Assembly: GCA_027623315.1 (NCBI GenBank)
Contig: JAQBYD010000011.1
Location: 4,108-68,107, forward strand
Reading direction: 5' to 3'
DNA from: Verrucomicrobiota bacterium
GTDB taxonomy: Bacteria > Verrucomicrobiota > Kiritimatiellia > CAJWTS01
DNA: 64,000 bases
Shown: positions 42,362 through 55,761 of the stretch, in pieces
How the letters are laid out: each line of letters opens with the position of its first letter
Position numbering within the stretch: position 1 is the first letter of the stretch
The notes under the pieces: model-generated
Told to the model about the DNA's origin: nothing
Database searches by the model: none
The model's input: only the letters and a program-made list of their open reading frames with translations
Position numbers and translations under genes: made by a program

Positions 42362-44629
<2,268 letters not shown>

Positions 44630-44837: not shown

Positions 44838-45605
44838 ATGCGCGCCGCGCTTGCGGTATATGCCGCAATCCTCGCAGCCGCAATGAGTTCAGGCTGCGTC
44901 AGCACCGGACCGGTCACGGACGTGGCCAGTCGAGAGGCCGCCAGCAAGGCATGGGAGGCCGGCAGACGCGCTGCGGAAGCCGACTGCGCCGAGGAACGGG
45001 CGCTCTACGCCAAGGAACGGGCGCTCTACGCCAAGGAACGGGCGCTCGTCCCGAAAAGAATCGACGCGGCCCTGCAGCAGGGGCGTGTGCAGGGCGATGC
45101 CGCTGCCGTCAAACGCATTGAAGCTGAACAACTTGCCGCAGAGAAGGCAGCGGCCGCGCGGGATGCCGCGGCCCTGACCGCCTTCATGAGCACGCTCGCC
45201 GAGACTCCCGTGCTCGGGGACCGCAAACTCCGAACGGACAAGGGCCGGACACTCGAGGCCCGCCATTTGGTGGACATGATCCAGACCCAACTCGAGAAAC
45301 TCGAATGTGAGCTTGTCCTCTCAGTCCCACTCCAGGCCATGCCGAGGGTTCAGGACTACGGCGAGCAGAAGATTCTGCTGACCATGTCTTCCGAATTCAA
45401 CGAGTCTTTCTTCGAGAACATCGAGAAGCTGTCGATCCTGGACGCGCTCAACCTGCTCAACAAGCTCTACGGGTTCAGCGCATGGATCTCGGGTGACAAG
45501 ACGACTATCTGCCTCGGCTTTGCCGTACACCCGCCCTCCTCACACCCCAATACGAAGATCGATCTCTACTTCAGCGAGAGAGAGTTCAGGGAGCGCGTCC
45601 GGTAG
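44838..45605 (+). CDS. Hypothetical lipoprotein with internal tandem repeat (EERALYAK)n
   Basis: ORF 44790..45605 with probable start MRAALAVYAAILAAAMSSGCVS (lipobox). A/E-rich coiled-coil-like middle. The tandem 21-bp repeat lies at 44994..45047. Confidence 0.5.
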   Translation: MRAALAVYAAILAAAMSSGCVSTGPVTDVASREAASKAWEAGRRAAEADCAEERALYAKERALYAKERALVPKRIDAALQQGRVQGDAAAVKRIEAEQLAAEKAAAARDAAALTAFMSTLAETPVLGDRKLRTDKGRTLEARHLVDMIQTQLEKLECELVLSVPLQAMPRVQDYGEQKILLTMSSEFNESFFENIEKLSILDALNLLNKLYGFSAWISGDKTTICLGFAVHPPSSHPNTKIDLYFSEREFRERVR

Positions 45606-45821: not shown

Positions 45822-47363
45822 ATGAAGCAACCCAACATAGTCTATATTCTCGCCGACGACCTGGGGTGGTGTGACCTAGGGGGTCTGGGCGGCAGCGAAT
45901 TCTACGAGAGCCCGCATATCGACCGCATTGCGACGGAGGGTATGCATTTCACCCAGGCGTACGCATCCAGCCAGGTGTGCAGCCCTTCGCGTGCGAGCAT
46001 CATGACGGGCAAGTATCCGCCCCGGCACGGCATTACGGACTACCTGGGCGCGCCCTGCGGCGAGGCCTGGCGCTCGATGGGCCGATGCGACAGGATGCTG
46101 CCGCCCGACAACGCGCCCGGCTTACGCGCTGACGAAATCACCTTTGCCGAGGCGTTGCGTCGCGGGGGCTATCGTACCTTCTTTGCGGGGAAGTGGCATC
46201 TTGGCGAAGCGGGTGCGGACCCGGAGGATTTCGGGTTCGAGATCAACAAGGGCGGATGGGCAAACGGGGGACCGGCCGGCGGGTACTTCGCGCCTTGGGA
46301 GAATCCGAAGCTCGAGTCCGGACCCGATGGAGAGTCGTTGCCCTTGAGGCTGGGCCGAGAGACCGTGAAGTTTATCGAGGCGCACGCTTCGGCAGGCTCA
46401 GCGCAGGACAAAGACGAGCCCTTCCTGGCCTACCTCTCGTTCTATTCCGTGCACGGTCCCATCCAGACCAGCCGGGGCCGCTGGGAGAAGTACCGGCAGA
46501 AGGCGGTTGCACAAGAAGTGGCGGATAAACGCTTTATCTTCGACCGCAAACTGCCCGTGAGGCAGGTGCAGGACTGCCCCATCTACGCCGGTATGATCGA
46601 GGCCATGGACGACGCCGTGGGCCTGGTGCTGGACGCACTCGACAGGCTTGGGCTCACCGAAAATACGATCGTGTGTTTCACCTCGGACAACGGCGGCGTC
46701 TCGGCGGGCGACAGCTATTCCTCATCCATGCTGCCGCTGCGCGGTGGCAAGGGCCGCCAATGGGAAGGCGGTATTCGCGAGCCGCTCTATTTCCGGTTTC
46801 CGGGTCGCATCCCATCCGGTTCATCCTGCGATGTGCCGGTGTCCGGGATCGATTTCTATCCGACGTTGCTCGAGCTTGCCGGGCTGGAGGTGCCGCCCGG
46901 GCAGGAGGTCGACGGCCAAAGCATGGTTAAGCTGCTGGGCGGTGCGGACGACCCCGCTATCGCCGGTCGCGACCTGTTCTGGCATTACCCGCACTACGGA
47001 AACCAGGGAGGGGATCCGTCATCCACCATCCGGCGCGGTGACTGGAAGCTGATTCACTACCACGAGGACGGGCACGACGAACTCTACAACCTCGCGCAGG
47101 ATCCCGGGGAACAGGACGACGTGCATGTAGCGAACGCCGCGCTGGCCATCGCCCTGCGTGAGACCCTCGACCAGTGGTTGGACGACACGGGCGCCGCGTT
47201 CCCCGCTCCGGACCCCGAATACGATTCAGAAAAGCATGCCGCCTACCTGCAGCGCCAGGAGCATGTGTTGATGCCGCGGCTCGAGGCCGAACACGCCCAA
47301 TACCTCGATCTGGACTGGCAGCCGAACGCAGACTGGTGGGGCAGCCAGGTCATAAACGACTGA
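45822..47363 (+). CDS. Sulfatase (arylsulfatase family); no signal peptide apparent
   Basis: MKQPNIVYILADDLGWCDLG... with the CSPSRAS formylglycine motif, and the C-terminal sulfatase segment ELYNLAQDPGEQDD. Confidence 0.9.
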   Translation: MKQPNIVYILADDLGWCDLGGLGGSEFYESPHIDRIATEGMHFTQAYASSQVCSPSRASIMTGKYPPRHGITDYLGAPCGEAWRSMGRCDRMLPPDNAPGLRADEITFAEALRRGGYRTFFAGKWHLGEAGADPEDFGFEINKGGWANGGPAGGYFAPWENPKLESGPDGESLPLRLGRETVKFIEAHASAGSAQDKDEPFLAYLSFYSVHGPIQTSRGRWEKYRQKAVAQEVADKRFIFDRKLPVRQVQDCPIYAGMIEAMDDAVGLVLDALDRLGLTENTIVCFTSDNGGVSAGDSYSSSMLPLRGGKGRQWEGGIREPLYFRFPGRIPSGSSCDVPVSGIDFYPTLLELAGLEVPPGQEVDGQSMVKLLGGADDPAIAGRDLFWHYPHYGNQGGDPSSTIRRGDWKLIHYHEDGHDELYNLAQDPGEQDDVHVANAALAIALRETLDQWLDDTGAAFPAPDPEYDSEKHAAYLQRQEHVLMPRLEAEHAQYLDLDWQPNADWWGSQVIND

Positions 47364-49050: not shown

Positions 49051-50580
49051 TCACAAGTCGAGTTCGGTGAGCTGTCGTTTGTAGTCCTCCAGACATGGCG
49101 GGCACAGCCCATGCGTGAAGTCGGCGTCGGAGTGGTCCGTAATGTATTCCTCTATCTGGTGCCAGTAACCCCCGTCATCACGAATACTCTTGCACGCCGC
49201 ACAGATAGGCAGCAGGCCATGCAAGGTGCGGATGCTGGATGCGGCATCTTGCAGGTCGCCGATCAATCTTTCCTTTTCGGTCTCCATACGCTTCCGTTGC
49301 GTAATGTCGTGGAAAAACCAGATTCTGCCGTGGTAGGTGCCGTCCTTGCCGCGCAGCGGTGACGAGTAGCGCTCGAGCGTGCTGCCGTCCTTGAATTCGA
49401 TTTCGTCGCTGCTTGCGGCGTCCTTGTGCTCGTACAGGTAAGCGACTTTCTCGATAAACGCATCGGGGTCTTTGATTTGGGCGATCACATGCTGCAGTCT
49501 TTCATCCTCACGCTCTTCCAGTAGATGCGGAGGAATGTTCCAAAGCTCGCCGAAGCGTTTGTTGAATAGGATCGCTTTGCCTTCGTTGTCGACGGCGAGG
49601 ATACCGTCAATCGTCGTCTCGGACTGCGCTTCGAGAAGCGTCGTCTTGAACTGGAGATCCAGCGCGGTCGCGCGCGCCCGCTCACTCGCGAGATCACGCT
49701 CAGAGATGGCCGCCGCGGTGATCAGGCCGATCAAGCTCGCTGCCATCAGGAATCCGTGCAGCGTCGCAAGACTTTCGTGGGGGGTCGCGCGGATGAACGG
49801 GCCCACGCCACTGGCGGTACCACAGACAGCGATGACGGCGAGCAGAAATGTGACCACAGTCACGCCCTTGGGACCCCCGCGGATTGCCGTTCCAAGCACG
49901 AACACAATGGGCAGATAGGCGAAGATGGTGCCGTGTTCGCCGAGAGCCGGCGAGGCGGAGAATGCAAGTGTCGTCATCAGGGCGATCAGGGCGCCGAACC
50001 CCAGGATTTCGACCCCCTCCCGCGCGCGCACCCGGTCTGCCGCAGGAGCGCATCAGCTCAGAATCAGCGGTGCGAACACGATGACGCCGAGCGTGTCGCC
50101 CAACCACCAGTCGGTCCAGATGCCCAACGCATCGGCGCTGGGGGCCACGCCGCCGAGGATGAGCGCAACGGTGCCGATCGTGGCGCTGATCACGGTGGCC
50201 GCGCCGCCGCCCAGAAACGCAAGCGTCAGCACGTCGCGGGTGCGCAGAAGGGCCGGTTCGAACTGACTCTTGCGCAGCACGAGGGCCCCGGCGACGGCGG
50301 CCGCCGTGTTGCCGGCGGCGATCCCGGCCGCCGTCCCAATAGAAAGGTCGGTCGTCAGGTTTACGGCGAGTGCGCCCAACGCGGCGACCGGCCACATTCT
50401 TTGCCCACCGAGGACCAACAGGGCCAGGGCGATACCGGAGGGCGGTCAGATCAACGTAACGTTCGCATGCGCGTCGGCCAGGGAAAGGCCGACTCGACCC
50501 GTCAGGTAGTAGGCGGCCGCTCCTGCCGCGATGTGAAGCAGGTAGCGGGGAATGGATTTGGGTACGGCGGCCGTCTTCAT
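49051..50580 (-). pseudogene. MASE1 - PAS - Cys-rich C-terminal sensor gene interrupted by two in-frame TGA codons (complement 50446..50448 and 50053..50055)
   Basis: A single continuous minus-strand frame reads MKTAAVPKSIPRYLLHIAAGAAAYYLTGRVGLSLADAHANVTLI*PPSGIALALLVLGG...VIVFAPLILS*CAPAADRVRAREGVEILGFG...PAS...LLPICAACKSIRDDGGYWHQIEEYITDHSDADFTHGLCPPC. The first TGA occupies the conserved Trp of the MASE1 (IW)PPSGIALA motif. The ORF track splits this into 50053..50418 and 49051..50031. Confidence 0.55.
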
Positions 50581-50589
50581 GGATGCCTG

Positions 50590-51132
50590 CTATCCGATCA
50601 GTTTCCTGGTGAACTCCACGTCTCTCTTGATGTCATCGACGTTGTCACGGGTGAGCATGGTTTCAATGATGAACGTGTCGACGCCCGTGTCGACTGCTGC
50701 CCGGATGGCTTCCTCGGCGCCACATGATCCTTCGCCCAGGCGCGTGGACGCGACCTCGGCGTTGGCATCATTGACGTGCAGGGAACAGACCCGGCCTTCG
50801 TACTTCTTGATCCAGTCCGCAAGCACAATGCCCCGTTCAGGGCCGAAATCCTTCAAGAGATCGCGCCACGCTTCGTACCGGTTGTCGAACTCGTCCACGG
50901 TCAGGTGCCCGCACGTGAGTTGCATGCCGGTATTGGACAGGGCTTGCCGCATGTCGTCCAATGACGTCGAGGCGTTCGGGTCGTCCGGCACCGCGCCGCA
51001 CCACGCTTCGATGTGGTCGATACCCAGTCCCTTGACCGCCTCGAAGGCGGCTTCCATTCCCCCTTCGAATTTCTGAAGCGTGTAGAGCTGGTATCCGAGT
51101 ATGTTCGTCATATTCCCTCCGTTTCTAGACAT
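50590..51132 (-). CDS. Xylose-isomerase-like TIM-barrel (sugar phosphate isomerase/epimerase) family protein, unusually short (180 aa)
   Basis: The N-terminal (ILGYQLYTLQKF...GIDHIEAW) and C-terminal (SLHVNDANAEV...GEGSCGAEEAIRAAVDTGVDTFIIE) segments match the family, but about 100 aa of the middle seem absent. An intact paralogue lies at 58174..59127. Confidence 0.5.
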   Translation of the reverse strand: MSRNGGNMTNILGYQLYTLQKFEGGMEAAFEAVKGLGIDHIEAWCGAVPDDPNASTSLDDMRQALSNTGMQLTCGHLTVDEFDNRYEAWRDLLKDFGPERGIVLADWIKKYEGRVCSLHVNDANAEVASTRLGEGSCGAEEAIRAAVDTGVDTFIIETMLTRDNVDDIKRDVEFTRKLIG

Positions 51133-51870
51133 CGACAGCCGTAGACACCGAAGCCGTCCTCACCTCATCCGCTGTCACTTCCACGTCTCGCTCGCTGGAC
51201 AGGTAGACGCCTTGCTGGATCAGCATGGTGTTCAGGGCGAGTTCCGCGCTGGGCAGGAGCTCGACACGGCCGTGCAGGGCCGCGGCCCAGTGGCGCTGCG
51301 ACGACGATACGTCCTGACTGCCTTGCGGATTCATCAGGGAGCGTCTGCCCATGACTGCATCCACGCTGGCCTTCATGTCGAAGTCGATGTCGGCGATCGT
51401 TTTGTGGAAGCTGAAAGGATCGACCCTAAGGCCTCCCTGCGACCCCACGATATAGCTCGGGGAGAACTCGTTGAGATTGATCGCCCAGGCGGAGACGATA
51501 TCCATCGTCAGACCTCCTTCAAAAAACACGCATCCGGTTGCGAACTCTTCGACATCAAATTCACGTCCGCGTAGGATCCGGCGATAGGTTTCTGGCAATA
51601 GACGTGCTTGCCTGATTGCAGCGCCGCGATCGTCACCGGCGCGTGCAGGTTGTTGTGCAGGCAGACGTCCACGGCGTCGATGTCGTCCCGCGCGAGCAAC
51701 TCACGGAAATCGCTGCAACGCTCGGGAATGTTAAAGGTGCTGCAGGTCGTGGCGAGCGCATCGCTATCGGTGTCGCATGCCGACACCACCTCGATCTCCT
51801 CGATTTCGCCCCACTCCCGCAAGTGGTGCTGCGCGATCTGGCCGGTTCCAATGATTCCGATTCGTTTCAA
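51125..51870 (-). pseudogene. Gfo/Idh/MocA-family oxidoreductase with a frameshift at an A6/T6 homopolymer (about 51521-51526)
   Basis: N-terminal Rossmann part KRIGIIGTGQIAQHH...HVYCQKPIAGSYADVNLM (ORF 51508..52047 frame; TTG start at 51870 after AAGGAG). It continues in another frame as GCVFFEGGLTMDIVSAW...VDPFSFHK... (ORF 51125..51598). The frame switch maps to gtgttttttgaagg. Total length is only about 248 aa. Confidence 0.55.
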
Positions 51871-51923
51871 TGCCTTCTCCTTCTTCCTGCTACCCCTGCT
51901 TGTAACTCCAGGCACCGATCCGC

Positions 51924-52290
51924 TCAACGGGAATCTGGCAATTCGTCCGAATAGATGGATGGGGCCATGGGGAAGAGGGCCGTCTTCCCGAATTCGGAAC
52001 CCTCGACTTGCCATGGCCGCACTTCGCCGACATTCTCGTATGCCCATACCGCATATCCACCGAGTTCATGGACGTGCCAGTAGTCCGATGGTGCGACTAT
52101 GCCGCCGTGAGCCTGCGCCAGTCGCACGAGGATACCGTGCGCCTTTAGAGCGTCCAATCCCACGGCGCTGCGCGGGCCATGCGGCTCGCACAAGCCAGAG
52201 GGAAAATTACACTGCCGGACAAGCAGCAAAGGCTGCTTCCAGTTGGTGCGGAAACATGCGTTCCCAACGCACTTCGTGCAAGTCGGTCAT
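51924..52290 (-). pseudogene. Creatininase-family-like gene fragment, frameshifted and C-terminally truncated (tentative)
   Basis: Minus-strand ATG at 52290 after GAGGATGAGGA gives MTDLHEVRWERMFPHQLEAAFAACPAV*, a creatininase-like N-terminus. The +1 frame continues ...PSGLCEPHGPRSAVGLDALKAHGILVR... (compare LPVGSTEQHGPHLPLGTD). Only about 120 aa before the stop. Confidence 0.35.
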
Positions 52291-52294
52291 GGGT

Positions 52295-52430
52295 GAATCC
52301 TCATCCTCGTGCTCGTGCTCACTCTTTCGCTTTCACCCAATCCCATTTCCACGCTGATTCCAGATAACCGGGGTTCTCGAGGATCGCTTCGCTCCGAGCA
52401 CGAGAACGAGCACGAGGACGAGCACGATTC
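52295..52430. repeat. Imperfect inverted repeat built from GAGCACGAG units (2 inverted copies on the left, 3 tandem copies on the right) flanking a 75-nt spacer
   Basis: gaatcctcatcctcgtgctcgtgctc ... gagcacgagaacgagcacgaggacgagcacgattc. The region is intergenic or part of a decayed gene. The plus-strand ORF 52309..52593 (HENEHEDEHD) is probably spurious. Confidence 0.6.
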
Positions 52431-52624
52431 AGGGCGGCACGCCGTTGTGTGTCTACCGTGCGCTGGCCCGTATGCGGCGGGTTCGCAGATAACTCGCCAT
52501 ACCTCGACAGTTTCGCGCATGGGGTCGAGGGGTGGAATGAGACCTGGACCTGTCCGCGGTTTCTCTTCTCCGCATTCGTGTAGATGCGAGTGATTCGTGG
52601 GCCCCAAATCTGGGACGTTTCAGG

Positions 52625-55499: not shown

Positions 55500-55761
55500 T
55501 GTTTGCTCTCCGATAGTATTGTGTTCCGGTATTCGAGGACAACATTGCCCCTCGTCGATGGGACTAGACTAGTCAGCCGCGGAAAAAGCGCAAGTCGCGA
55601 CTTGAGGGTTTTGAGCTTTTTTTTTAGACCGGTTTTGAGTGACCCCGCGAAGGGGTCATTGCCTGATGATTCCAGACCGGGCGGTTTGCCGGGGATGACC
55701 CCGGCGGCGGGGGGTGGTGTTGGTGGTGACAGGAGAGGACGTCCGACGAGGAGGATAGAAA

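Follow-up and report, generated by a model that had tools for sequence, protein, structure and literature searches.

The gene for a putative MASE1-PAS sensor, located on the minus strand of a 64-kb stretch of Verrucomicrobiota DNA (the whole of which is referred to here as the window), is very probably a recently inactivated unitary pseudogene within a gene cluster that is itself decaying. The frame runs from an ATG at 50580 to a TGA at 49053-49051, a span of 509 codons in which no frameshifts were found, and carries two internal stops, both of them TGA, at 50446-50448 (codon 45) and 50053-50055 (codon 176). As in a nonsense pseudogene, the two TGA codons stand at sense codons of the homologues in a frame that is otherwise full-length.

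49051-50580, minus strand: probable sensor pseudogene (MASE1 + PAS + Cys-rich tail), natural stop TGA at 49051-49053
50446-50448, minus strand: premature TGA #1, codon 45, at the WPPSGIALA Trp of MASE1, next base C
50053-50055, minus strand: premature TGA #2, codon 176, at the Trp of APLxLSW, next base T
49696-50520, minus strand: MASE1 membrane sensor domain, residues 21-295 of the restored protein (PF05231, E 4.8e-38)
49282-49614, minus strand: PAS domain, residues 323-433 (PAS_7/PAS_4 Pfam match)
49093-49224, minus strand: C-terminal Cys-rich module LHGLLPICAACKSIRDDGGYW...HGLCPPC (CxxC...H...CxxC), no named family

Architecture of the sensor frame

The domain searches were run on the translation with Trp restored at codons 45 and 176. 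The match to MASE1 (Pfam PF05231) reached 131.4 bits against a gathering cut-off of 29.8 and covered profile positions 6-298 of 299, and it is followed by the PAS match and the CxxC...H...CxxC tail, in agreement with the preliminary description of this DNA, which had read the locus as a MASE1-PAS-Cys-rich sensor in a single frame broken by two TGA codons only. Further disruptions of the frame, which that description had named as a finding that would speak against its reading, were not seen in the sensor. Both premature stops fall within the MASE1 domain, the longest N-terminal product being 44 aa, and the sensor gene contains no uninterrupted frame able to yield the MASE1 membrane domain.

In having an N-terminal MASE1 domain followed by PAS, the restored protein resembles the MASE1 signalling proteins (PF05231), such as the MASE1-PAS histidine kinases and diguanylate cyclases, from which it differs in that it ends in a small Cys-rich module, has no output domain, and is encoded by a broken gene. 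The restored sensor has no output domain of the kinase, GGDEF, EAL or phosphatase type, and its nearest NCBIfam matches are MASE1-PAS kinases and cyclases that lie far under their cut-offs.

The C-terminal module, of ~45 aa, follows the consensus GLLPIC-x2-CK-x-IRDD-x-G-x-W...HS-x-A-x-F-[ST]-HG-x-CP-x-C, and its four Cys and the His are presumably metal-binding. It terminates many MASE1/PAS sensors of Verrucomicrobiota, Spirochaetota, Deltaproteobacteria and Acidobacteriota and also occurs stand-alone in proteins of 58-132 aa, the carriers being P0002, P0003, P0005, P0006, P0022 and P0243-P0288 together with L061, L067 and L069-L084. The module matched no Pfam or NCBIfam family, and a literature search with its motif strings gave nothing. 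An AlphaFold (AF2) model of it was moderately confident (pLDDT 77.7), and a fold search of this model against PDB structures gave no significant match (best E 2.1).

The two stops in homologues and in public assemblies

Among 5.8 billion proteins searched, two homologues proved intact and full-length: P0002, of 586 aa, and P0003, of 517 aa. They are 51-52% identical to the restored sensor across 97-98% of the query (E 1e-158). Full-length homology of this strength to proteins of 517-586 aa places the 1.5-kb frame far beyond chance. As to close orthologues of the sensor, only matches of <=52% identity or to PAS alone were returned by the protein search, the GTDB genomes and the JGI metagenomes, and the loci of P0002 and P0003 show no synteny with the window.

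Conservation was assessed in an alignment of 21 sequences, consisting of the restored sensor and 20 MASE1 homologues. Trp occupies codon 45, in the WPPSGIALA motif, in 20/20 of the homologues and codon 176 in 17/20, and the sensor retains every other MASE1 residue that is invariant or nearly so. In the DNA of both P0002 and P0003 the two sites are TGG within a near-identical local codon context (ATC TGG CCG CCC; AGC TGG), so that each sensor stop corresponds to a single third-position G>A transition, and TGG would be the ancestral codon at codons 45 and 176 in the window lineage. The preliminary description had proposed that TGA #1 replaces the invariant W of WPPSGIALA through a TGG to TGA change, and had suggested a comparison with relatives; the W in 20/20 homologues and the TGG codons of P0002 and P0003, the closest homologues with an intact gene, bear this out. 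It had, however, tied only TGA #1 to a conserved Trp, and in this it was incomplete, as TGA #2 also falls at a conserved Trp.

The restored sensor gene offers 30 single-transition routes to a stop, 9 of which are TGG>TGA, and the chance that two nonsense changes are both of this type is ~0.09, or lower if transversions are included, a coincidence that is at most mildly unusual. Under random scatter, the chance of the second TGG>TGA landing in the same 9-TGG sensor gene is ~3%, which favours gene-specific relaxation over errors or a diffuse change in decoding.

The sensor locus is present in four public assemblies, some of which may share one sample or read set, their independence being partly shown.

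L001, JGI metagenome contig Ga0065726_12062: 100% identical to the window, holds TGA #2, ends at window position 50354
L002, ENA scaffold: 100% identical to the window, holds both TGAs
L003, Logan contig from run SRR2027830: 100% identical to the window, holds both TGAs
L004, NCBI Verrucomicrobiota MAG contig JAQCJJ010000014.1 (GCA_027593205.1): holds both TGAs, with three differences elsewhere

TGA #2 is seen in L001-L004 and TGA #1 in L002-L004. Across 20.7 kb, L004 differs from the window by two SNPs, namely C/T at 45228 and A/G at 45878 (the latter a synonymous CTA/CTG change in a Leu codon of a sulfatase gene), and by one homopolymer indel at 55617-55625, where an intergenic tract is T9 in one and T8 in the other. 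The break of the JGI contig L001 within the sensor gene at 50354 is located 92 nt from TGA #1 and could reflect strain variation. When 15 billion proteins were queried for exact matches, the 44-aa and 114-aa fragments turned up in NCBI (two MAGs), JGI, Logan and ENA, the 44-aa fragment ending at TGA #1 being recorded also in JGI/IMG and in a second NCBI MAG, and no intact or single-stop sensor allele was found.

The comparison of the assemblies indicates that the sensor TGAs are real and makes sequencing error unlikely. An artefact of sequencing or assembly, with TGG in the true genome at one or both sites, would be compatible with both changes being single-base G>A, with the derivation of several of the public assemblies from what may be one read set, and with the JGI contig ending inside the gene, possibly at nearby strain variation. 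Against it, four assembly pipelines give identical bases, the NCBI MAG contig L004 shares the stops despite its three differences elsewhere, and the fragment proteins recur in the five records listed above with the intact allele unrecorded. Two consensus errors that both create stops in one gene, among ~270 TGG codons, are moreover improbable, and the large deletions in the adjacent genes, which are described below, cannot come from base-call errors. Taken together, this makes an artefact highly unlikely. The preliminary description had left the choice between a fresh pseudogene and a sequencing error undecided; the former part stands in view of the wrecked neighbours and the state of the relative considered below, and the latter is made unlikely by the agreement of all assemblies that cover each site.

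Upstream neighbours and a relative with 19 sensor codons

Decay extends past the sensor gene to its upstream neighbours, which corrects the preliminary description. The damaged run consists of three, perhaps four, consecutive co-oriented genes, the least damaged of which is the sensor itself. The other members are as follows.

50590-51111, minus strand: remnant of a sugar-phosphate isomerase/epimerase (TIM barrel), 173 aa, with a 228-bp in-frame deletion
51125-51870, minus strand: remnant of a Gfo/Idh/MocA (DgpA-like) oxidoreductase, ~120 aa missing and a frame change
51924-52229, minus strand: possible creatininase-like stub, ~40 aa (PF02633, E 5e-4, 19.9 bits against 31.3)

The sensor ATG is located 9 nt past the stop of the 173-aa TIM ORF (50593-51111), which is annotated in NCBI as hypothetical protein O2923_04000. 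Searches of PDB and NCBIfam with this remnant were uninformative, and its identity came from the homologue search, in which nearly all of the 120 matches listed are sugar-phosphate isomerase/epimerase TIM barrels of ~248 aa. The alignment with these shows a clean gap of 76 residues that removes the HNHHMEL core, and corresponds in the DNA to the 228-bp in-frame deletion, the junction of which lies between 50842 and 50841.

The oxidoreductase survives in two pieces. The N-terminal piece (51508-51870) retains ~110 NAD-binding residues (PF01408, E 7e-24; paralogue alignment) and then meets a stop, and the C-terminal piece (51125-51598) corresponds to the Gfo/Idh/MocA-type protein DgpA (367 aa; 7xr9_A, E 0.007) over residues 230-361, with the frame change located near 51565-51575. 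The homology of the 157-aa C-terminal piece was detected via DgpA only, as a comparison with the intact paralogue gave no similarity. Hence ~120 residues are missing and the frame has changed. Upstream of these pieces, a region of ~750 bp without a called gene (51871-52624) contains a segment of ~40 aa, FPSGLCEPHGPRSAVGLDALKAHGILVRLAQAHGGIVAPS, which may be a fourth gene remnant, the N-terminus of a creatininase-family amidohydrolase, the match being below the Pfam cut-off.

The closest homologue of the TIM ORF, P0124 (91% identity), is carried by a 1,295-bp JGI contig (3300032820, Ga0310342_100552579; L165), which is 87-90% identical to the window at the nucleotide level over a stretch that takes in the end of the Gfo gene, the TIM gene and the start of the sensor. 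In this relative the TIM gene is intact, and the sensor is represented by its first 19 codons only (MKHASGTGAALRYVIHIAA vs MKTAAVPKSIPRYLLHIAA), beyond which the contig has a stop, an inverted repeat and an unrelated gene. This repeat, in the contig region 877-1055 together with the sensor stub, is a perfect 12-bp inverted repeat, GAGCGTCCCGCT ... AGCGGGACGCTC, and may mark the scar of a deletion or rearrangement, or a terminator. Since the start of the sensor is kept in place in L165, the ancestor had the sensor there, and a second lineage has discarded it. Between the TIM remnant and its counterpart in L165, dS is 0.32 and dN/dS is 0.15, which implies that most of the divergence occurred under selection and hence that the inactivation in the window lineage is recent. 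A recent inactivation also fits the retention by the sensor of every other invariant and near-invariant MASE1 residue, and the lack of any other lesion in it likewise points to a very recent event. The neighbour deletions and the 19-codon remnant in L165 suggest that the sensor gene was dispensable or under relaxed selection.

Meaning of TGA in the window and fate of the gene

Among the 41 confident genes of the window, TAG is the stop of 18, TGA of 15 and TAA of 8. Reading through the gene-ending TGAs would append up to 163 aa without homology. In the catalase-peroxidase KatG, encoded on the plus strand at 42362-44629, the TGA falls directly at the canonical C-terminus: residues 26 to 753 of 755 align with solved KatG structures and reach target residue 727 of 728. 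No other coding frame broken by an in-frame stop was found within the 64 kb by a GC3 scan and a codon-usage log-odds scan, and the ~260 TGG codons elsewhere in the window are intact, which answers the question, raised in the preliminary description, of whether other Trp positions had become TGA. The other candidates for interrupted genes were, per Pfam, shadow frames or adjacent separate genes: CN_hydrolase next to Meth_synt_2 and LemA next to M48 are in each case two separate genes and not one interrupted gene, and the frame antisense to ribosomal protein S2 is a shadow frame. It has to be noted that TAG is the most used stop in this genome of 61% G+C, a mild oddity; at ~61% G+C composition, TGA is usually the dominant stop.

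The position of both in-frame TGAs at Trp codons is what would be expected if UGA were read as Trp genome-wide (code 4), and it is also the one observation that could be brought forward for the insertion of selenocysteine. The former is refuted within the window, in which TGA ends 15/41 genes, KatG at its canonical C-terminus included, and in which the ~260 Trp codons elsewhere are all TGG and none is TGA; the doubts expressed earlier about a genome-wide TGA=Trp code were thus well placed. A selenoprotein gene carries its UGA at a Cys or Sec position of the homologues and has a SECIS hairpin, whereas the homologues of the sensor carry Trp, not Cys, and a hairpin directly after the TGA is absent. 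Neither reassignment nor selenocysteine insertion can be given any appreciable credence. Likeness to the table 4 reassignment, or to near-cognate read-through by tRNA-Trp, is limited to the presence of UGA where Trp is expected; in contrast to the systems that convert UGA to Trp, UGA is here an ordinary stop, and the anomaly is confined to one gene of a decaying cluster.

More local alternatives would leave the gene alive. If the UGAs were sometimes read as Trp, by near-cognate tRNA-Trp or by a suppressor, the stops would act as an attenuator and a little wild-type sensor would be made, and since both stops stand at Trp positions, decoding by tRNA-Trp would give back precisely the protein of the ancestor. 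The TGA-C context of TGA #1, and the absence of frameshifts together with the retention of all other conserved MASE1 residues, as in a gene still under selection, can be read in the same sense. In E. coli, TGA followed by C is reportedly the leakiest termination context, a finding attributed to Poole, Brown and Tate in 1995. The yields of two leaky stops in series would, however, multiply to a negligible product, and no stable RNA structure that might stimulate read-through was found 3' of either TGA, the 69 nt after each folding like shuffles (z 0.0 to 1.8). The only Rfam element in the window is a tRNA-His, which was also the only result of the tRNA scan, so no suppressor tRNA was found in the window. 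Such a device occurs in no other gene of the 64 kb, the stops are not conserved (TGG stands at these sites in the homologues, and the sensor is deleted in the nearest relative), and the partner genes of the cluster have been destroyed by deletions. Programmed read-through is likewise contradicted by the missing 3' element, the TGG codons of the homologues and a relative without the gene. Local read-through as an attenuating device is therefore highly improbable, in line with the earlier judgement that local recoding was the less likely reading, and it is extremely unlikely that tRNA-Trp or an unseen suppressor yields a trace of wild-type sensor from an attenuated but living gene that would represent an ambiguous-decoding intermediate. 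Intermediates of this kind have been proposed to explain how UGA=Trp codes arose, and if the reading were true, one would exist in a GC-rich, free-living Verrucomicrobiota bacterium. It is also very unlikely that the gene has been remodelled rather than killed, with the 326-aa ORF that starts at GTG 50031 being expressed alone and retaining some signalling. This ORF, which comprises the last MASE1 helices, the PAS domain and the Cys module, is predicted by gene callers (P0001/P0122), neither its PAS nor its Cys module is damaged, and the Cys module does occur stand-alone in nature. Yet no Shine-Dalgarno-like sequence precedes either GTG 50031 or ATG 49977, whereas a GGAGGG stands ahead of the ATG of the adjacent TIM gene; the ORF begins in the middle of MASE1, its architecture is found in no homologue, and the gene is dispensed with in a relative.

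In the model favoured here, that of a recently inactivated pseudogene, the ancestor would have encoded a 509-aa inner-membrane sensor, in which a MASE1 transmembrane domain was followed by PAS, a coiled-coil linker and a small Cys4/His module. Its gene would have been the last of a tightly packed, co-oriented cluster with the order creatininase-like stub (the weak match), Gfo/Idh/MocA oxidoreductase, TIM-barrel isomerase and sensor, the function of which was presumably lost as a whole, leaving the sensor as the least damaged member. Two independent G>A transitions would have converted the Trp codons 45 and 176 from TGG to TGA, and with TGA read as stop, translation from the ATG would halt after 44 residues, so that no functional sensor is likely to be produced. 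Once the first stop was in place, the second would have been neutral. This order of events, and the view of the cluster as one functional unit, are what the pattern of damage suggests.

As a nonsense pseudogene of a MASE1-PAS sensor the locus is ordinary, and it shows nothing at odds with known biology. Nonsense unitary pseudogenes have been catalogued in many free-living and host-restricted bacteria, and Shigella is said to provide an example in its degenerate MASE1/GGDEF sensors. The present gene shares with such bacterial pseudogenes the premature stops at sense codons of relatives, the degraded neighbours and the loss in a relative, and shows no mechanistic difference from them, the notable point being that both changes are TGG>TGA at conserved Trp. 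For annotation, this means that the ORFs of 44, 114/121 and 326/227 aa, deposited as "hypothetical" or "PAS-domain" proteins, represent one pseudogene, and that the upstream 173-aa "hypothetical protein" is a deletion remnant. It also means that an in-frame TGA at a conserved Trp is insufficient to suggest recoding. Beyond annotation the significance is small, the wider interest lying in the unnamed C-terminal Cys-rich module, and the locus provides a clean case of the joint decay of a whole small cluster of genes in an environmental bacterium.
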